The notes under the pieces were generated by a model. That model ran no database searches, was not told the DNA's origin, and saw only the letters and a list, made by a program, of their open reading frames with translations. From the IMG/VR virus record IMGVR_UViG_2526164667_000037: DNA of 31,081 nt, one strand, 5' to 3'. The stretch is from a virus (lineage: Duplodnaviria; Heunggongvirae; Uroviricota; Caudoviricetes). Of this stretch, positions 3,605-11,420 are shown one piece after another (the stretch's first letter is position 1; every line of letters begins with the position of its first letter). The position numbers and the translations under genes were made by a program.

Positions 3605-3828
3605 TGCCGGACAACGTAGATTTCATTCAGGAACAACAGGCTGAATTACTGGAGCGTCAGATTAACGCGGCAAGGGTAAAACATTGCGGTGCTTCTGCGC
3701 TGGTTTGCGAAGAGTGTGACGCGCCAATACCTGCTGCCCGTCGTGCGGCTTATCCGTCAGCCACGCGTTGTGTTTCCTGCCAGTCAGTCTTTGAAGCAAA
3801 AAACAAGCATTACCGGAGAATGGCATGA
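3604..3828 (+). CDS. TraR/DksA-type C4 zinc-finger protein (P2 orf82-like, 74 aa)
   Basis: CxxC...CxxC (VCEECDAPIP...RCVSCQ) typical of the phage TraR/DksA zinc-finger family; synteny. Confidence 0.8.
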   Translation: MPDNVDFIQEQQAELLERQINAARVKHCGASALVCEECDAPIPAARRAAYPSATRCVSCQSVFEAKNKHYRRMA

Positions 3829-4100
3829 GTATTCGTATTGAAATTGGCGAACGTTATGTCGTTACCAGTGACAGCTTTCAGTTTATTCTCCACGAGAAAA
3901 AGAGAGCGGAAAGCGGTAAAAACGCCGGTCAGGAATGGCTGGCGGTGGTTGGTTATTATCCGAAATTAAGCCAGCTCGTTTCCGGCCTGATGCATCACGA
4001 TATTCTGACCGGAAGCGCAAAGTCTTTTGCTGATTTAAACGCGCAGGTTGAGCAACTCAGCAGGCGTTGTTCAGAGGCTTTTGGCTCATATGGCCGTTAA
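3825..4100 (+). CDS. P2 orf83-like hypothetical protein (91 aa)
   Basis: ORF coupled to the preceding gene; its 3' end overlaps the start of A. Confidence 0.7.
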   Translation: MSIRIEIGERYVVTSDSFQFILHEKKRAESGKNAGQEWLAVVGYYPKLSQLVSGLMHHDILTGSAKSFADLNAQVEQLSRRCSEAFGSYGR

Positions 4101-6375
4101 AGCCTCCGGGCGTTTTGTCCCTCCTTCAGCATTTGCTGCAGGCACCGGTAAGGCGTTTACCGATGCTTATGCATGGAACGCGCCACGCGAGGCCGTCGGG
4201 CGCGAAAGACCCCTTACACGTGACGAGATGCGTCAGGTGCAAGGTGTTTTATCCACGATTAACCGCCTGCCTTACTTTTTGCGTTCGCTGTTTACTTCAC
4301 GCTATGACTACATCCGGCGCAATAAAAGCCCGGTGCACGGGTTTTATTTCCTCACATCCACTTTTCAGCGTCGTTTATGGCCGCGCATTGAGCGCGTGAA
4401 TCAGCGCCATGAAATGAACACCGACGCGTCGTTGCTGTTTCTGGCAGAGCGTGACCATTATGCGCGTCTGCCGGGGATGAATGATAAGGAGCTGAAAAAG
4501 TTTGCCGCCCGTATTTCATCGCAGCTTTTCATGATGTATGAGGAACTCTGCGATGCCTGGGTGGATGCGCATGGCGAAAAAGAATCGCTGTTTACGGATG
4601 AGGCGCAGGCTCACCTCTATGGTCATGTTGCTGGCGCTGCACGTGCTTTCAATATTTCCCCTCTCTACTGGAAAAAATACCGTAAAGGACAGATGACCAC
4701 GAGGCAGGCATATTCTGCCATTGCCCGTCTGTTTAACGATGAGTGGTGGATTAGTCAGCTTAAAGGCCAGCGTATGCGCTGGCATGAAGCGTTACTGATA
4801 GCTGTCGGGGAGGTCAATAAAGACCGTTCTCCTTATGCCAGTAAACACGCCATTCGTGATGTGCGTGCGCGCCGCCAGGCAAATCTGGAATTTCTTAAAT
4901 CGTGTGACCTTGAAAACAGGGAAACCGGCGAACGCATCGACCTTATCAGTAAGGTGATGGGCAGTATTTCTAATCCTGAAATTCGCCGGATGGAGCTGAT
5001 GAACACCATTGCCGGTATTGAGCGTTACGCCGCCGCAGAGGGTGATGTGGGGATGTTTATCACGCTGACCGCGCCGTCAAAGTATCACCCGACACGTCAG
5101 GTCGGAAAAGGCGAAAGAAAAACCGTCCAGCTTAATCACGGCTGGAATGATGAGGCATTTAATCCAAAGGATGCGCAGCGTTATCTCTGCCGTATCTGGA
5201 GCCTGATGCGCACGGCATTCAAGGATAATGATTTACAGGTCTACGGTTTGCGTGTCGTCGAGCCACACCACGACGGAACGCCGCACTGGCATATGATGCT
5301 TTTTTGTAATCCACGCCAGCGTAACCAGATTATCGAAATCATGCGTCGCTATGCGCTCAAAGAGGATGGTGACGAAAGAGGAGCCGCGCGAAACCGTTTT
5401 CAGGCAAAACACCTTAACCGGGGCGGTGCTGCGGGATATATCGCGAAATACATCTCAAAAAACATCGATGGCTATGCACTGGATGGTCAGCTCGATAACG
5501 ATACCGGCAGGCCGCTGAAAGACACAGCGGCGGCTGTTACCGCATGGGCGTCAACGTGGCGCATACCACAATTTAAAACGGTTGGCCTGCCGACAATGGG
5601 GGCTTACCGTGAACTACGCAAATTGCCTCGCGGCGTCAGCATTGCTGATGAGTTTGACGAGCGCGTCGAGGCTGCACGCGCCGCCGCAGACAGTGGTGAT
5701 TTTGCGTTGTATATCCGCGCGCAGGGTGGGGCAAATGTCCCGCGCGATTGTCAGACTGTCAGGGTCGCCCGTAGCCCGTCGGATGACGTTAACGAGTACG
5801 AGGAAGAGGTCGAGAGAGTGGTCGGCATTTACGCACCGCATCTCGGCGCGCGTCATATTCATATCACCAGAACGACGGAGTGGCGCATTGTGCCGAAAGT
5901 TCCGGTCGTTGAGCCTTTGACTTTAAAAAGCGGCATCGCCGCGCCTCGGAGTCCTGTCAATAACTGTGGAAAGCTCACTGGTGGTGATACTTCGTTACCG
6001 GCTCCCACACCTTCTGAGCACGCCGCAGCAGTGCTTAATCTGGTTGATGACGGTGTTATTGAATGGAATGAACCGGAGGTCGTGAGGGCGCTCAGGGGCG
6101 CATTAAAACACGACCTGCGAACGCCAAACCGTCAGCAAAGAAACGGAAGCCCGTTAAAACCACATGAAATTGCACCATCGGCCAGACTGACCCGGTCGGA
6201 AAGAATGCAAATTACCCGTATCCGCGTTGACCTTGCTCAGAACGGTATCAGGCCGCAGCGATGGGAGCTTGAGGCGCTGGCGCGTGGCGCGACCGTAAAT
6301 TATGACGGGAAAAAATTCACGTATCCGGTCGCTGATGAGTGGCCGGGATTCTCAACAGTAATGGAGTGGAAATGA
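4090..6375 (+). CDS. A: Replication initiation protein A (rolling-circle nicking endonuclease), 761 aa
   Basis: Start MAVKASGRFVPP at 4090 gives the P2 A length; contains PHWHMMLF (HUH-type motif) and Tyr-rich active-site region; sequence matches P2 A as I recall it. Confidence 0.95.
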   Translation: MAVKASGRFVPPSAFAAGTGKAFTDAYAWNAPREAVGRERPLTRDEMRQVQGVLSTINRLPYFLRSLFTSRYDYIRRNKSPVHGFYFLTSTFQRRLWPRIERVNQRHEMNTDASLLFLAERDHYARLPGMNDKELKKFAARISSQLFMMYEELCDAWVDAHGEKESLFTDEAQAHLYGHVAGAARAFNISPLYWKKYRKGQMTTRQAYSAIARLFNDEWWISQLKGQRMRWHEALLIAVGEVNKDRSPYASKHAIRDVRARRQANLEFLKSCDLENRETGERIDLISKVMGSISNPEIRRMELMNTIAGIERYAAAEGDVGMFITLTAPSKYHPTRQVGKGERKTVQLNHGWNDEAFNPKDAQRYLCRIWSLMRTAFKDNDLQVYGLRVVEPHHDGTPHWHMMLFCNPRQRNQIIEIMRRYALKEDGDERGAARNRFQAKHLNRGGAAGYIAKYISKNIDGYALDGQLDNDTGRPLKDTAAAVTAWASTWRIPQFKTVGLPTMGAYRELRKLPRGVSIADEFDERVEAARAAADSGDFALYIRAQGGANVPRDCQTVRVARSPSDDVNEYEEEVERVVGIYAPHLGARHIHITRTTEWRIVPKVPVVEPLTLKSGIAAPRSPVNNCGKLTGGDTSLPAPTPSEHAAAVLNLVDDGVIEWNEPEVVRALRGALKHDLRTPNRQQRNGSPLKPHEIAPSARLTRSERMQITRIRVDLAQNGIRPQRWELEALARGATVNYDGKKFTYPVADEWPGFSTVMEWK

Positions 6376-6827
6376 TGGCAAAAATTCACGAGGTAAAGCT
6401 GCACGCCAAATATTTTGACCTTGTGCTGGAAGGAAAGAAACGCGCAGAGTTTCGGAAAAATGACCGTAATTATGAGCGCGGGGACACGCTGATTTTGCAT
6501 GAATGGGTACAGGGTGTGTTTACGGGGCGAAAGGTTGAAGCCCGGATAACAGATGTTACTGACCTGTCAGACTGGCTGGAAGATTATGTCTTGCTAAGTA
6601 TTGAGCTGCTTAATACAGGCGCATATGAGATTGTGAACTGGAAAGAACTTAGTGAGCGTGGTCTGGTATTCAGAATTAATCATGAAATTATGCATCAGCT
6701 CGGTCTTGCTGTTATGTATGAGTCAGTGACAGGCCTGTCTGGCGGAGCAGTGGTTGCCACGGATGGAGCATGGAACTATTCAGATGAACAGATGGAGCGT
6801 GCACAGCAAAACGGGTGGCTTGGATAA
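6372..6827 (+). CDS. ASCH/DUF3850-like (PUA-fold) protein, about 151 aa, coupled to A
   Basis: ATG overlaps the A stop (ATGATG at 6372-6377); N-terminus KIHEVKLHAKYFDLVLEGKKRAEFRKNDRNYERGDTLILHEW looks like an ASCH-type domain (recognised by eye, not searched). Confidence 0.65.
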   Translation: MMAKIHEVKLHAKYFDLVLEGKKRAEFRKNDRNYERGDTLILHEWVQGVFTGRKVEARITDVTDLSDWLEDYVLLSIELLNTGAYEIVNWKELSERGLVFRINHEIMHQLGLAVMYESVTGLSGGAVVATDGAWNYSDEQMERAQQNGWLG

Positions 6828-7048
6828 TGCACAGAATACCAGGCGAGATACCGCACCATAAAACTAAAAATATCAAGCTGATGGCCATTGTTCACCGTCT
6901 ACAGCAGATTATGGTAAACGAAAATCTGACGCCTGATGAGCTGGTCGGGTGTGCGCAAATTGTTAGGGATAATTACGAGCGTTTGAACGATATGATTCAG
7001 CTTGGTACTTTCCAGCCAACAATACCTTTCTGGGGGCAACCTCGATAA
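6827..7048 (+). CDS. Hypothetical small protein (73 aa)
   Basis: ATG 6827 overlapping the previous stop (TAATG); no recognisable family. Confidence 0.45.
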   Translation: MHRIPGEIPHHKTKNIKLMAIVHRLQQIMVNENLTPDELVGCAQIVRDNYERLNDMIQLGTFQPTIPFWGQPR

Positions 7049-7053
7049 CCATA

Positions 7054-7096
7054 AAACCCTGCAGGTGCTGAAACTTGTTTTCAACACCTGCAGGGT
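7054..7096. repeat. Perfect 13-bp inverted repeat (AACCCTGCAGGTG ... CACCTGCAGGGTT) with 17-nt loop
   Basis: Read directly in the sequence; not followed by a T-run; sits at the boundary between the phage-GC region and the AT-rich cassette. Confidence 0.8.
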
Positions 7097-7170
7097 TGAG
7101 CAATGAGCGGCGCTAGGAGTTAGCAGCCTAGATTTCTGAATGTAACCCATTATAAAAATGATTTTGTGAT

Positions 7171-7200
7171 TTGAAGCTTGGAATTAAAATGAGTTAAAAT
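7171..7200 (+). promoter_or_regulatory. Candidate sigma70 promoter for the AT-rich cassette
   Basis: TTGAAG (7171-7176), 18-bp spacer, TAAAAT (7195-7200), within an AT-rich leader upstream of ATG 7267. Confidence 0.3.
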
Positions 7201-7266
7201 GAGTAGTGTTAACAGGCTGATAAACTAAACCAAGTAAGTTGTAAAAATAAATAGTGGAGTGTACAA

Positions 7267-7653
7267 ATGACACAGCAATATGTTAAAGACGTCATGATTG
7301 GTCAGAGGAAATTGCTTTCATCTAATACTTTCATAATTCCAAAAGGTGAAATGTGTGATTTTAAATTAAATATATCTGATGACGAGAATGAGTTTAACTT
7401 TCCTATTCGCATTGCCTTTGATGATGATGGCGGTTCAACTCAATCAGTTGAGTTCAAACCAGATCCATCCTCAAGCTCTATGAAAATGATCTTGCATAAC
7501 TGGAATAACCCTCTTGGCTCTGCGCTGAAAGAGTTTTACCCTATTGTTAATATCGAGAATAGAACAACAATTGAAATGCTTATGGTAAATAAAAGACTTG
7601 GCGATGTAAATGAACTGGTTATTCAATTCTGGCGAAAGGTCGAAATGTCATGA
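7267..7653 (+). CDS. Hypothetical protein, 128 aa, no recognised domain (first gene of AT-rich cassette)
   Basis: ORF with GGAG 7 nt upstream of ATG; low GC; stop overlaps the next start (ATGA at 7650-7653). Confidence 0.7.
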   Translation: MTQQYVKDVMIGQRKLLSSNTFIIPKGEMCDFKLNISDDENEFNFPIRIAFDDDGGSTQSVEFKPDPSSSSMKMILHNWNNPLGSALKEFYPIVNIENRTTIEMLMVNKRLGDVNELVIQFWRKVEMS

Positions 7654-8006
7654 ATAAGCCAAAAATAGAACTAGCTACAATTCCTGTCTCGCCTGATGAT
7701 ATATCCACTAACTTGCAGGTGGGTGTAATAGTTGTTAGTGAGGATAAGTTGATTCGCATCCTTGAAAAGGATCGGGAGAGGACTAAAAAGAATATGGCTT
7801 GGACAGCTCCTGCTAGTTTTTTTATCACATTGATTGTTGCAATATTAACAACTGATTTTAAAAGTCGGTGGGGTATGCCTGCGGAAGCATGGCAGGCGCT
7901 TTTTTATGTAGGGGCGGGATTATCTGCAATCTTTGCTGTTATTTATTGGTGTAAAGTAGACAGAAAAGACATGGATAAGTTGATTGAAGAGATAAAAGGT
8001 AAATAG
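7650..8006 (+). CDS. Small membrane protein, 118 aa, two predicted TM helices (second gene of cassette)
   Basis: Hydrophobic segments WTAPASFFITLIVAILTTDF and AWQALFYVGAGLSAIFAVIYW flanked by charged residues; translationally coupled to the upstream ORF. Confidence 0.7.
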   Translation: MNKPKIELATIPVSPDDISTNLQVGVIVVSEDKLIRILEKDRERTKKNMAWTAPASFFITLIVAILTTDFKSRWGMPAEAWQALFYVGAGLSAIFAVIYWCKVDRKDMDKLIEEIKGK

Positions 8007-8027
8007 TCTCTTCCTATTTCACATTAT

Positions 8028-8055
8028 GGGGGATTCTTGAGTTATGCCCCCTTTT
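8028..8055 (+). terminator. Putative terminator (GGGGG-loop-CCCCC-TTTT) after the cassette
   Basis: GGGGG 8028-8032, CCCCC 8047-8051, then TTTT; 14-nt loop makes it weak. Confidence 0.35.
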
Positions 8056-8063
8056 GTAACGTG

Positions 8064-8093
8064 AAAAACTGGCATCTTGAGAGCCAGTTTTTT
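8064..8093. terminator. Putative bidirectional rho-independent terminator
   Basis: AAAACTGGC (8065-8073) pairs with GCCAGTTTT (8083-8091); A-run on one side and T-run on the other. Confidence 0.5.
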
Positions 8094-8252
8094 ATGCGTT
8101 TCTTCCCGATTTTCAGACTTTTTTAGATCTGCATGCGTTATTGCATCGAATTGCATGCGTTTCCATCTCCTGTAGCGTCTGAGCGTCGCCAGTGCTGGCG
8201 CCCCTCCGGCATGTTCGTGCACCTGCATTAAAACCGCCCTATGAAGCGGGCG

Positions 8253-8271
8253 GGCGAGGCGGGGAAAGCAC
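8253..8271. other. cos site (19-nt cohesive end GGCGAGGCGGGGAAAGCAC)
   Basis: Matches the P2 cohesive-end sequence as I recall it; located upstream of the portal/terminase genes. Confidence 0.85.
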
Positions 8272-8440
8272 TGCGCGCTGGCGGTGGTGCTGATTTTATT
8301 TTTTCAGCGTCTGAGCGCGTCTTGATGGCGTTTAGATTGTGCGCCGGGGCGTTGGTGTGTCTGCGGGGTGTTTTGTGCGGTGGTGAGCGTGTGAGGGCGT
8401 GATGACGGGGTGTAAAAAAGCCGCCCGCAGGCGGCGATGT

Positions 8441-9475
8441 TCAGCCGTTGTCAGTGTCCAGTGAGTAGTTTTTAAAGCGGATGACCTCCTGGCCGAGCCA
8501 GCCGTTTATTTCCCGAATCCTGTCCTGTAACGGGATAAGTTCATTGCGGACAAAGACCTTTGCCACTTTCTCAATATCACCCAGCGACCCGACGTTCTCC
8601 GGCTTGCCGCCCATCAACTGAAAAGGGATGCGGTGCGCGTCCAGCAGGTCTGCGGCGCTGGCTTTTTTGATATTAAAAAAATCGTCCTTCGTTGCCACTT
8701 CACTGAGCGGGATAATTTTAATACCGTCGGCTTTTCCCTGTGGGGCGTAGAGAAACAGGTTTTTAAAGTTGTTGCGGCCTTTCGACTTCACCATGTTTTC
8801 GCGAAGCATTTCGATATCGTTGCGATCCTGCACGGCATCGGTGACGTACATGATGTATCCGGCATGTGCGCCGTTTTCGTAATACTTGCGGCGGAACAGC
8901 GTGGCCGACTCATTCAGCCAGGCAGAGTTAAGGGCGCTGAGATATTCCGGCAGGCCGTACAGCTCCTGATTGATATCCGGCTCCAGCAGGTGAAACACGG
9001 AGCCGGGCGCGAAAGGTGTCGGCTCGTTGAAGGATGGCACCCACCAGTAAACATCCTCCTCCACGCCACGGCGGGTATATTTTGCCGGTGAGGTTTCCAG
9101 TCTGATGACCTTACCGGTAGTGCTGTAGCGCTTTTCCAGAAACGCATTACCGAACACCAGAAAATCCAGCACAAAGCGGCTGAAATCCTGCTGGGAAAGC
9201 CACGGGTGCGGGATAAACGTTGAGGCCAGAATATTACGTTTGACGTAAATCGGTGAGCTGTGATGCACGGCAGCACGCAGGCTTTTTGCCAGACCGGTAA
9301 AGCTGACCGGTGGCTCATACCATCTGCCGTTACTGATGCACTCGACGTAATCCAGAATATCACGGCGGTCGAGTACCGGCACCGGCTCACCAAAGGTGAA
9401 TGCCTCCATTTTCGGGGCGCTGGCAGTCATTGTTTTCACCGCTGGCTGCGGTGTTTTCCCTTTTTTCTTACTCAT
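8441..9475 (-). CDS. Q: Portal protein (344 aa)
   Basis: Same length and position as P2 Q; start overlaps the P stop. Confidence 0.95.
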   Translation of the reverse strand: MSKKKGKTPQPAVKTMTASAPKMEAFTFGEPVPVLDRRDILDYVECISNGRWYEPPVSFTGLAKSLRAAVHHSSPIYVKRNILASTFIPHPWLSQQDFSRFVLDFLVFGNAFLEKRYSTTGKVIRLETSPAKYTRRGVEEDVYWWVPSFNEPTPFAPGSVFHLLEPDINQELYGLPEYLSALNSAWLNESATLFRRKYYENGAHAGYIMYVTDAVQDRNDIEMLRENMVKSKGRNNFKNLFLYAPQGKADGIKIIPLSEVATKDDFFNIKKASAADLLDAHRIPFQLMGGKPENVGSLGDIEKVAKVFVRNELIPLQDRIREINGWLGQEVIRFKNYSLDTDNG

Positions 9476-11247
9476 CAGTAAAACTCCAGAATGGTGGATG
9501 TCAGCGGAGTGCTGATACCGGCGGTGAGTGGCTCATTTAACAGGGCGTGCATGGTCGCCCAGGCGAGGTCGGCGTGGCTGGCTTCCTCGCTGCGGCTGGC
9601 CTCATAGGTGGCGCTGCGTCCGCTGCTGGTCATGGTCTTGCGGATAGCCATGAACGAGCTGGTGATGTCGGTGGCGCTGACGTCATATTCCAGACAGCCA
9701 CGGCGGATAACGTCTTTTGCCTTGAGCACCATTGCAGTTTTCATTTCCGGCGTGTAGCGGATGTCGCGCGCGGCGGGATAGAACGAGCGCACGAGCTGGA
9801 ACACGCCGACACCGAGGCCGGTGGCATCAATTCCGATGTATTCGACGTTGTATTTTTCGGTGAGTTTGCGGATGGATTCCGCCTGGGTGGCAAAGTCCAT
9901 GCCTTTCCACTGGTGACGCTCAAGTATTCTGAATTTGCCACCGGCCACCACCGGCGGTGCCAGTACCACGCATCCGGCGCTGTCGCCACGGTGTGACGGG
10001 TCGTAACCAATCCATACCGGTCGGGAGCCGAACGGATTGGCGGCAAACGGCGCATAGTCTTCCCATTCTTCCAGCGTGTCGACCATGCAGCGTTGCAGCT
10101 CCTCGAACGGGAACACCGACGCCTTGTCGTCAACAAATTCACACATGAACAGGTTTTTAAAATCGTCGGCGCTGTTTTCACGTTTGAGCTGCTCAATGTC
10201 GAACAGCGTGCAGCCGCCTTTCAGGGCATCCTCAATGGTGACAATCTGCCGCCACTGGCCGTCCGCACAGAGAAGACCTCCGGCAAGGGCGTTATGACTG
10301 ACGTCGATTTCCACGCGTTCGGCGGCGCTGGCGCGTCCCCGGTTGAACAGTTCACCAGACCAGAACGGGTAGGCGTCGTGCGCCAGCGTGGACGGGGTGG
10401 AGAAATAGGTCGAGCGCAGGTGACTCTGTGAGGCCATACCTGATGCCACCTTACGCAGTACCTGAAAATTCGGGATCCAGAAAATCTCGTCGACGTACAG
10501 GTCGCCGTTATGGCTCTGTGCGGTGTTGGAGTTGGTGCCGAGAAAAATCAGTTTTGCGCCGTTATTGCCCAGGACAATCGGGTCACCGGTCAGGTCAACG
10601 TCAACCAGACGGGCAAAGGCGATGATGTATTCGCGGAACACATACGCCTGCGTTTTACTGGCCGACAGAAAAATCTGGTTATGGCCGGTTTTCAGGGCGC
10701 GCAGCAGCGCCTCACGGGAAAAATAAAACGTCGCGCCAATCTGGCGGGATTTCAGGATATCGCGGATGCGGTGCTCAAGCCCGGCGCGATACCAGTGCAA
10801 CTGATAGTCGAAAGACTGCTCAAAGAAAATCTGCTCCAGCTTTTCGATGGCCTCGTCACTGAAAAAATTCTTTTTCGGTTTGCGCCGCCCGCCTTTGTTG
10901 CGGTTAGCGACGTTCGGATTAAGGTCTGCCTCGTTGCCGGTCTGGCTGTAGCGGTTTACCCGTGCCAGTCGTTCAATCTGGCGTCCGAGCAGGTCAATTT
11001 CCTTGAAGTCACCGCCGGTTTTCTGCGGTTTGATGATGAGCTGGGTCAGCCGCGCTTCCAGGCTCATTTCGACACGGCTGATGGGGGCAACACTGTCCCA
11101 GCCGTCGCGCTGTTTCCAGCTCTGCACCGTCGGGCGTTTCATCTGCAACATGGCGGCAATCTGCGGCACGGAAAACCCCTGCCAGTACAGCAGCGCCGCC
11201 TGACGACGCGGGTCGTGTAAAAGAGTGGTGTCTGTGGTGATGGTCAT
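9475..11247 (-). CDS. P: Terminase large (ATPase) subunit (590 aa)
   Basis: Start MTITTDTTLLHDPRRQ at 11247 gives the P2 P length; the 10-codon upstream extension is rejected. Confidence 0.95.
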   Translation of the reverse strand: MTITTDTTLLHDPRRQAALLYWQGFSVPQIAAMLQMKRPTVQSWKQRDGWDSVAPISRVEMSLEARLTQLIIKPQKTGGDFKEIDLLGRQIERLARVNRYSQTGNEADLNPNVANRNKGGRRKPKKNFFSDEAIEKLEQIFFEQSFDYQLHWYRAGLEHRIRDILKSRQIGATFYFSREALLRALKTGHNQIFLSASKTQAYVFREYIIAFARLVDVDLTGDPIVLGNNGAKLIFLGTNSNTAQSHNGDLYVDEIFWIPNFQVLRKVASGMASQSHLRSTYFSTPSTLAHDAYPFWSGELFNRGRASAAERVEIDVSHNALAGGLLCADGQWRQIVTIEDALKGGCTLFDIEQLKRENSADDFKNLFMCEFVDDKASVFPFEELQRCMVDTLEEWEDYAPFAANPFGSRPVWIGYDPSHRGDSAGCVVLAPPVVAGGKFRILERHQWKGMDFATQAESIRKLTEKYNVEYIGIDATGLGVGVFQLVRSFYPAARDIRYTPEMKTAMVLKAKDVIRRGCLEYDVSATDITSSFMAIRKTMTSSGRSATYEASRSEEASHADLAWATMHALLNEPLTAGISTPLTSTILEFY

Positions 11248-11420
11248 GAATACCTCGCCGTGATGAATACACGGCAAGGCTACTGAGTCGCGCCCCGCGA
11301 TTCGCTAAGGTGCTGTTGTGTCAGTGATAAGCCATCCGGGACTGATGGCGGAGGATGCGCATCGTCGGGAAACTGATGCCGACATGTGACTCCTCTAATC
11401 ACTATTCAGGACTCCTGACA

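Follow-up and report, generated by a model that had tools for sequence, protein, structure and literature searches.

Two small genes, here called ORF-a and ORF-b (6372-7048), separate a P2-type gene A from an AT-rich cassette (7267-8006) in the stretch of viral DNA analysed here (31,081 nucleotides from a P2-like prophage, hereafter the window). They fall within the interval by which Rousset et al. (2022, PMC9122126) defined the gpA-gpQ defence hotspot in P2-like phages, and the question they raise is whether they are cargo of this hotspot or belong to the phage itself. We favour, with a probability of roughly 0.6, the view that they close the P2-type early (replication) operon as accessory, semi-conserved genes, and are not cargo.

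Gene A, which encodes the P2-type replication endonuclease, extends over positions 4090-6375 on the + strand (its start was placed by length analogy, and a 761-aa Phage_GPA product is called at identical loci). Its TGA stop, read directly from the sequence, lies at 6373-6375 and is overlapped by ORF-a (6372-6827, + strand), for which two in-frame starts follow a GGAG at 6363-6366: the first ATG (6372-6374) yields an ATGA overlap and a product of 151 aa, and the second (6375-6377), which is the PGAP start in identical prophages, yields a TGATG overlap and a product of 150 aa. Overlap with the gene A stop is also found in P2, Wphi, YpM50, and many prophages. At its other end, the TAA stop of ORF-a (6825-6827) overlaps, as TAATG, the ATG (6827-6829) of ORF-b, which encodes a 73-aa helical protein and ends with a TAA at 7046-7048 (6827-7048, + strand). 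An initial annotation, made from the sequence alone, had correctly reported both the start of ORF-a on the gene A stop and the coupled 73-aa ORF: A, ORF-a, and ORF-b are translationally coupled by start/stop overlap. Given these overlaps, synthesis of both products most probably accompanies that of the replication initiator A, which, by analogy with the biology of P2, would most likely place their expression early in lytic growth.

ORF-a contains two domains. Residues 5-77 (6384-6602, + strand) constitute a DUF3850 or minimal ASCH domain, with the PUA-like beta-barrel fold of the DUF3850/ASCH superfamily. The DUF3850 (PF12961) and ASCH (PF04266) profiles match ORF-a with scores of 64.5 bits (cutoff 22.9) and 41.7 (cutoff 21.2), respectively, PHROG 1812 matches it over its full length (E 2.6e-80), and RefSeq names its identical or near-identical copies 'DUF3850 domain-containing protein'. 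The ASCH/DUF3850 call of the initial annotation is thus supported by both profiles and fold, but a second domain, DUF7415 (PF24187), had been missed. The ASCH octapeptide reads G21-K-K23-R-A-E26-F-R28, in agreement with the GxKxxExR pattern, and is of the Glu-containing 'GKER' type by virtue of K23 and E26. In GKER-type ASCH proteins, a Lys/Glu dyad is reported in a 2026 preprint to be essential for ac4C deacetylation (bioRxiv 10.64898/2026.02.27.708502). Among ORF-a homologues, K23 and R28 are invariant, G21 varies, and Leu stands in place of E26 in the Enterobacter lineage; this replacement and the variable G21 argue against a conserved catalytic role. ORF-a is under purifying selection (dN/dS 0.13-0.27). 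It is an ASCH-fold protein with an intact K..E.R pocket, to which a DUF7415 module is attached.

This architecture departs from that of known relatives. The structural-genomics DUF3850 structure 3IUW (an Enterococcus faecalis 'activating signal cointegrator') is an 83-aa stand-alone domain, whereas ORF-a carries DUF7415 in addition. Similarly, ORF-a is only 15% identical to the YqfB/ASCH-type N4-acetylcytidine amidohydrolases (9KYF; TthASCH 2DP9), its DUF3850 domain is shorter than the YqfB type (about 77 aa versus about 103), and its octapeptide holds a Glu where YqfB, for which a Glu74 acid is described as well, has a Thr (GKTR). The Glu of the ORF-a octapeptide is lost in close homologues. 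A literature search retrieved no functional literature on DUF3850, DUF7415, or orf91.

Comparison with phage P2 shows that ORF-a represents the P2 orf91 family in its full-length form. P2 Orf91 (NP_046796, a 'DUF3850 domain-containing protein' in RefSeq; PHROG 1812) occupies the same position, with a start overlapping the gene A stop, and ORF-a residues 1-75, which include the whole DUF3850 domain, are 97% identical to it, so that the suggestion of a 'local equivalent of P2 orf91' is borne out by alignment. The initial annotation had also proposed that membership of an orf91 family devoid of the ASCH fold would count against its domain call; as the orf91 family is itself the ASCH/DUF3850 family, the two are not alternatives. 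Colinearity of ORF-a with P2 Orf91 ends at residue 75, owing to a deletion of 232 bp in P2. Window positions 6301-6595 align with positions 3802-4096 of the P2 locus, and P2 positions 4096-4122 with window positions 6828-6854; according to both pairwise and protein alignments, the segment missing from P2 (6596-6827, + strand) is such that ORF-a codon 75 is joined in frame to ORF-b codon 2. It is because of this deletion that P2 Orf91 lacks DUF7415, and the P2 protein instead continues through the opening residues of ORF-b before passing into unrelated sequence adjacent to tin. P2's own Orf91 is a derived form. The window has both genes undeleted, an arrangement that greatly outnumbers the fused one among E. 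coli prophages. Wphi gp91/gp92 was also considered as a model for the pair and was rejected, because the Wphi record contains about seven single-base insertions relative to all its relatives, which split the 151-aa gene (these insertions are probably sequencing errors).

The second domain matches DUF7415 in Pfam over ORF-a residues 87-129 (6630-6758, + strand; E 6.6e-13, 49.1 bits, cutoff 27), and conservation reaches past this boundary, to about residue 150. Its motif in ORF-a is GLvfRINxExxHxLGLA ... S.GA ... DG.W., residues G97, N103, H108, and G111 are invariant in remote DUF7415 members, and this part of the structural model is arranged as alpha-alpha-beta-beta-alpha (structural matches of the full-length model are dominated by the ASCH domain). 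Residues H104-E-I-M-H108 (HEIMH) resemble the HExxH signature and suggested a zincin (SprT-like) protease acting on covalent gpA-DNA. This candidate was rejected because the first His (T, K, R, N, or D in remote DUF7415 members) and the Glu, also variable, are not conserved; a Pfam search yielded no peptidase family match for ORF-a. Our survey of the DUF7415 family covered 174 cluster representatives. Elsewhere, the domain is fused to a dATP/dGTP pyrophosphohydrolase (PF04447), to an Rv2179c-like (DEDD-type) 3'-5' exoribonuclease, or to a thymidylate kinase, and it also occurs as a stand-alone gene, which in Jiaodavirus is flanked by nrdD and nrdG and in Slopekvirus lies close to a Nudix gene. 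In T4-like phages and prophages, DUF7415 proteins (PHROG 3954, 2502, and 33705) share with ORF-a a module of roughly 55 residues and the motif GL..RIN....HPLG.A...S.GA...DG.W, but the module stands alone or on nucleotide enzymes in these proteins, whereas it is joined to DUF3850 in ORF-a. The DUF3850-DUF7415 fusion was found in enterobacterial P2-like prophages only.

We evaluated the breadth of the pair in complete E. coli genomes and by contig look-ups. Both genes are present in 322-380 of the 5426 complete E. coli genomes; by comparison, the 3' end of gene A is found in 1682 genomes, versus 380-537 with the pair. A scan of genome contigs with ORF-a recovered a single locus and thus said little about breadth. 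More distant homologues of ORF-a (47-56% identity) occur in Enterobacter and in a JGI metagenome contig, where the order A, ORF-a, ORF-b is kept and ORF-a and ORF-b overlap through ATGA. Both genes are absent from the P2-like phages OU784750 and NC_070906 and from one E. coli prophage. As some P2-like phages lack the pair and P2 has undergone the 232-bp deletion, the pair is dispensable. Nor is it 'present unchanged in all P2-like phages': the P2 copy is a truncated fusion. A methods note in one preprint calls orf91 'an essential protein' and offers no evidence; this statement fits badly with the existence of P2-like genomes devoid of the gene.

What might such a pair do? On the most plausible mechanism, a nucleotide, a modified cytidine, or single-stranded nucleic acid would be bound, or perhaps deacylated, in the ASCH pocket of ORF-a. 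DUF7415 may provide docking or regulation that is common to several proteins, since it is joined to nucleotide-metabolism enzymes in other phages, and ORF-b may be a small binding partner or regulator, both products probably being made early in lytic growth together with initiator A. As DUF7415 is elsewhere fused or adjacent to nucleotide-metabolism enzymes, the pair most likely assists early lytic growth as an accessory directed at nucleotides or nucleic acids; the timing of its expression, its ligand, and any role in replication or nucleotide supply are inferred.

Two other functions deserve consideration, both of which we regard as doubtful. In the first, ORF-a would be a counter-defence or host-takeover factor, sequestering or hydrolysing, in its ASCH pocket, an immune signal derived from a nucleotide, or erasing ac4C from host tRNA, with ORF-b as a second, small inhibitor. 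The probable early expression conferred by coupling to gene A, the patchy distribution and dispensability of the pair among P2-like phages, and its location at the edge of a defence hotspot are all consistent with this proposal, as are the recognition of modified nucleotides in the PUA/ASCH clan, the description of ASCH proteins as ac4C erasers (bioRxiv 10.64898/2026.02.27.708502), and the association of DUF7415 with MazZ-like, Nudix, and RNR genes. However, the pair matches no known anti-defence family, very few anti-defence genes were found with current models in a large survey of P2-like prophages (PMC13586616), and the catalytic Glu is not conserved in ORF-a homologues. We consider quite unlikely a combined version, in which the pair would form a counter-defence or nucleotide-pool unit, the ASCH pocket of ORF-a binding or deacylating a modified cytidine or nucleotide, DUF7415 docking, and ORF-b acting as a separate effector. 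The ligand could then be, for instance, tRNA-borne ac4C or an immune signal derived from a nucleotide, and DUF7415, as a docking module so far unrecognised, would tie a MazZ-like pyrophosphohydrolase, a dTMP kinase, an exoribonuclease, and an anaerobic RNR to a common partner.

In the second, ORF-a would assist gpA on DNA during replication, with the ASCH domain serving to bind DNA, for example the displaced single strand or a structured DNA. The coupling to A is conserved across divergent P2-like phages, and phage DUF3850 domains are known in fusion with ParB-CTPase folds (PHROG 986), an architecture which is the only one consistently found beside a parA homologue (bioRxiv 10.1101/2025.10.10.680097). 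Nevertheless, many P2-like phages replicate without ORF-a, and half of it is missing in P2 itself.

The initial annotation had further proposed that the pair might be extra cargo at the variable slot, possibly a sensor partner for the downstream cassette. A regulatory link of ORF-a and/or ORF-b with the AT-rich cassette, which encodes a DUF6864 protein and a membrane protein, could be suspected from their adjacency on the same strand and from the presence, in the PUA-like clan, of modified-nucleotide sensors of defence systems. Yet the cassette is present in only 5 complete E. coli genomes versus 322-380 for the pair, which precedes at least seven different, unrelated cargo sets and, in one case, a nearly empty slot. 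Furthermore, comparison with a Citrobacter prophage reveals a sharp step at the cassette border, with identities of 52-68% in ORF-a versus 93-97% in the cassette: the pair diverges like phage backbone and the cassette is a recently moved block. The two are also separated by an AT-rich spacer, which contains a promoter-like site, and by a conserved hairpin. Genome counts and the contrast in identity with Citrobacter thus leave both the 'sensor partner' and the 'extra cargo' readings unsupported. Similarly, profiles of defence systems (PADLOC) returned only sub-threshold noise for the pair, and the idea that it is a known anti-phage defence component was rejected as no PADLOC match exceeded the threshold. 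One observation favours a link: the ORF-b variant with the C-terminal tail seen in the window precedes the DUF6864 cassette in all 12 contexts among the matches listed, which comprise exact ORF-b copies and a Citrobacter variant that is 77% identical and has a tail of the same type. This linkage is not fully explained, but we still consider a functional partnership with the cassette very improbable. Unlike the variable gpA-gpQ cargo, the pair is a semi-conserved block, located at the left edge of the slot, next to gene A. Near-identity with most other E. coli prophages stops at about position 6993, i.e. at ORF-b residue 56, and the variable part of the slot begins about there or past the hairpin.

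ORF-b itself is matched by PHROG 11386 (E 5.7e-37) and has homologues (64-100% identity) in Escherichia, Salmonella, Citrobacter, Enterobacter, Klebsiella, and Buttiauxella. Invariant alignment columns define a conserved core at residues 14-50 (6866-6976, + strand; KNIKLMAIVHRLQQIMVNENLTPDELVGCAQIVRDNY). In these 37 residues, dN/dS is 0.02-0.10 with pS values up to 0.7; in the comparison with locus L025, pS is 0.70 and pN 0.04, synonymous sites being near saturation. The AlphaFold model consists of three helices (pLDDT 76) and is confident over residues 20-50. Searches found no Pfam match, no fold match with the model, and no PDB sequence match. ORF-b occurs without ORF-a at two loci (L024 and L025) and DUF7415 also occurs without ORF-b, so that an ORF-a:ORF-b complex is not obligatory. 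ORF-b is a real gene whose core is under purifying selection: the notion that what is conserved is instead a DNA or RNA element bordering the hotspot, prompted by the small size of ORF-b, its lack of a Pfam family, the recombination breakpoints inside its 3' end, and the structured hairpin directly downstream, is hardly credible in view of the low dN/dS of a core with near-saturated synonymous sites, the coupling of its start to the upstream stop across lineages, and the confident helical model.

The hairpin, an 18-bp stem located directly 3' of ORF-b (7055-7097, + strand), has an invariant loop (TGAAACTTGTTTTCA) and a covarying stem, in which 6 pairs are changed on both sides. In the alignment, 93.8% of stem cells are paired, versus 33-55% when partners are slid, and none of 500 shuffles reaches the observed value. 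On the + strand, the strong stem is followed only by UU, relatives lack a T-run there, and a terminator scan flags the site on the - strand only; a search of positions 6300-8500 against Rfam gave only sub-threshold chance matches. The hairpin marks the end of the conserved early-operon block.

ORF-a and ORF-b both belong to already annotated families, and nothing in the locus would surprise a specialist. In the gpA-gpQ hotspot, the swap zone is truly bounded on the left by the 3' end of ORF-b together with the conserved hairpin, and counts or tests of cassettes should leave out the two genes that directly follow A. P2 is an atypical reference at this site because its Orf91 is a deletion fusion. 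More generally, the DUF3850, DUF7415, and ORF-b families are widespread phage genes, and the recurrent link between DUF7415 and nucleotide enzymes provides a concrete hypothesis that would be cheap to test.

The window is a P2-like (Peduovirus) prophage in which gene A, coding for the replication endonuclease on the plus strand, ends at 6375 and is followed on the minus strand by the portal gene Q (8441..9475) and the terminase gene P (9475..11277), which places ORF-a (6372..6827, plus strand, 151 aa) and ORF-b (6827..7048, plus strand, 73 aa) within the gpA-gpQ interval. In P2, this interval houses tin and old. It has also been described as a hotspot of anti-phage systems (Rousset et al., PMC9122126). 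Two candidate ATG starts of ORF-a, at 6372 and 6375 and both in its frame, lie at the gene A stop codon (TGA, 6373-6375), with a GGAG motif upstream (6363-6366); the ORF-a stop codon (TAA, 6825-6827) overlaps the ORF-b ATG at 6827, and ORF-b stops at 7046-7048. Direct reading of the sequence thus bears out the coordinates and overlaps of the initial annotation. Over 6372-7130 the window matches a prophage in E. coli SCU-482 at 100% identity, and RefSeq labels the two genes there "DUF3850 domain-containing protein" and "hypothetical protein". The early operon has a second variable slot: immediately ahead of gene A, a gene of the phosphoadenosine phosphosulfate reductase family is inserted in some P2-like prophages (comparison loci L021, 1381-2388, and L024, 1-133).

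Both ORFs are real genes. ORF-a was correctly assigned an ASCH/DUF3850 fold initially, but a second Pfam domain, DUF7415 (residues 87-129, E 6.6e-13), had been overlooked. Homologues 47-57% identical to ORF-a occur in enterobacterial P2-like prophages (Enterobacter, Leclercia and others), always with DUF3850 plus DUF7415, and these prophages retain the gene order A, ORF-a, ORF-b and the ATGA overlap between the last two. By Nei-Gojobori counts, dN/dS is 0.13-0.27 for ORF-a and 0.02-0.10 for the ORF-b core, with synonymous differences up to a pS of 0.7 in the latter. This core (residues 14-50, window 6866..6976) is almost invariant between variable ends (KLMAIVHRLQQIM(V/I)NENLTP.ELVGCA.(I/V)VRD), and ORF-b has homologues in six or more enterobacterial genera. 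ORF-b matches PHROG 11386 and no Pfam family. It is predicted to fold into a three-helix, bundle-like hairpin, with pLDDT exceeding 90 over residues 20-50; a structural neighbour search gave nothing informative, and no relative was found among PDB sequences.

The suggestion that ORF-a is the local equivalent of P2 orf91 proved right, P2 Orf91 being a DUF3850 protein too: residues 1-75 of the two proteins are 97% identical, and they diverge afterwards because of a deletion in P2. At the DNA level, window 6301-6595 is colinear with P2, and the adjoining P2 bases match window 6828-6854 (NC_001895 30539-30565, i.e. 4096-4122 of locus L002), so that P2 lacks precisely the 232 bp of window 6596-6827. 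DUF7415 and the ORF-b core, both present in the window, are thereby missing from P2, in which the ASCH domain is fused in frame to the first ORF-b residues (HRILGEILP versus MHRIPGEIP) and the sequence past the fusion point is that flanking tin. The reference phage P2 is therefore the derived form and its annotated Orf91 a deletion fusion. Wphi gp91 and gp92 (L001, NC_005056, 3373-3888) correspond to a single 151-aa gene interrupted by some seven single-base insertions; these are absent from all other relatives compared and probably reflect sequencing mistakes dating from 2003.

Within the window, ORF-a has the complete ASCH octapeptide (G21, K23, E26, R28) of the Glu-containing type, and a 2026 preprint (bioRxiv 10.64898/2026.02.27.708502) reports that ASCH proteins of that type deacetylate ac4C and need a Lys/Glu dyad to do so. 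However, Enterobacter homologues carry Leu at the E26 position, which makes a conserved catalytic role doubtful and ligand binding more likely. Phage DUF3850 domains are often fused to ParB-CTPase folds, with a parA homologue consistently encoded beside the fusion (bioRxiv 10.1101/2025.10.10.680097), and a DUF3850/ParB link is also seen via PHROG 986; these fusions hint at nucleic-acid binding. A literature search found no functional experiments on DUF3850, DUF7415 or orf91.

As a module, DUF7415 is small and mobile, and 174 cluster representatives of it exist in a set of 1.84 billion proteins. It is found either by itself or as a fusion with dATP/dGTP pyrophosphohydrolase, with an Rv2179c-like exoribonuclease or with thymidylate kinase. 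In Jiaodavirus a stand-alone DUF7415 gene sits between nrdD and nrdG and overlaps both, and in Slopekvirus one lies close to a Nudix hydrolase gene. The association of the module with nucleotide metabolism is thus recurrent (proteins P0232, P0233, P0235, P0252 and P0270; loci L027, 2977-3210, and L028, 2492-2749). A candidate zincin motif (HEIMH) was rejected, as it is not conserved in remote DUF7415 members. In prophage remnants, deletions join DUF7415 to integrase, Cox or RepB pieces (L012, 4875-5281; P0016-P0018, P0039), generating spurious "fusion" proteins in databases.

Among 5426 complete E. coli genomes, 6372-7130 is matched in 380 by megablast (322 with 80% or more of the query covered) and its DUF7415/ORF-b part in 351, versus only 5 for the region of the AT-rich cassette (7131-8100), which comprises DUF6864 and membrane-protein genes at 7267-8006. 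A match to the 3' end of P2-type gene A is present in 1682 genomes, compared with 380 for the gene pair, or 537 by blastn if partial and ORF-b-only matches are included. Two P2-like phages (OU784750 and NC_070906) and one E. coli prophage (L022) carry other sequence straight after A and lack the pair. Other loci have ORF-b but no ORF-a, and there ORF-b follows a DUF2158 gene or a DinI-like gene (L024, 3533-3688; L025, 3501-3710); in L025, an ISL3-family transposase gene also lies directly after A. In both loci, no further plus-strand gene separates ORF-b from the cargo. PGAP labels the L024 copy "meiotically up-regulated 80 protein", an obvious misnomer. Given these absences and solitary copies, the pair is an accessory block, semi-conserved and dispensable, on the gene A side of the hotspot. 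The description of orf91 as "an essential protein" in a methods passage (PMC12407873) is not backed by the P2-like genomes without the gene.

Cargo downstream of the pair is varied: Dcm with a ParB-like gene; Dcm with a HEPN-like nuclease and DUF262; S8 peptidase with AAA ATPase; DUF3696 with a hypothetical gene; several hypothetical-gene sets; and almost none in one genome. Aligned with a Citrobacter prophage that has this cassette as well, the window shows 60-82% nucleotide identity across gene A, 52-68% across ORF-a, 73-95% across ORF-b and about 80% over 7001-7180, but 93-97% from 7241 to about 8200, falling again past 8260. The cassette has thus moved recently as a block, ORF-a diverging with the phage backbone. 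(Loci for this Citrobacter/E. coli comparison were window 7241-8260, L037 3426-4400 and L029-L040. A promoter-like TTGAAG-18-TAAAAT at 7171-7200 is present in the Citrobacter cassette copy too.) Together with the genome counts and the absence of any PADLOC model for ORF-a or ORF-b, these data argue against the proposal that the pair is extra cargo at the variable slot, and equally against a sensor partner for the cassette. The exact ORF-b, and a Citrobacter variant whose C-terminal tail is of the same type (…DMIQLGTFQPTIP…), do precede the DUF6864 cassette in 12 of the 12 contexts shown; the simplest account, which would explain this link in part, is that breakpoints fall in the ORF-b 3' end and the tail hitch-hikes. 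Other tails are not cargo-specific: L006 and L007 have one cargo set in common but differ in tail, and many different sets follow the PPPRRR tail.

Directly after ORF-b lies an 18-bp hairpin (7055-7097), found there whatever the cargo (12 of the 26 loci fetched). Its apical part is invariant (CTGAAACTTGTTTTCAG, also given as TGAAACTTGTTTTCA) and its stem varies among prophage lineages with compensating changes, six pairs being changed on both sides; 93.8% of cells are paired versus 33-55% with slid partners, and none of 500 shuffles reaches the observed score. Conservation extends 3' to about 7123 (GTTGA.CAA.GAG...GTTAG). Rfam has no family for the hairpin, and no U-tract follows it on the plus strand. 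It probably forms the 3' terminus of the early transcript, or it may be a recombination landmark of the hotspot.

As to function, we infer that ORF-a would be a nucleotide- or nucleic-acid-directed accessory protein co-produced with gpA early in lytic growth, with DUF7415 as a shared docking or regulatory module and ORF-b as a small binding partner or regulator. The novelty of both genes is low, since they belong to families already catalogued and annotated in public genomes. The by-products are the reading of P2 Orf91 as a deletion fusion and the link between DUF7415 and nucleotide-metabolism genes, and ORF-b with its covarying hairpin marks where the cargo slot truly begins on the left.
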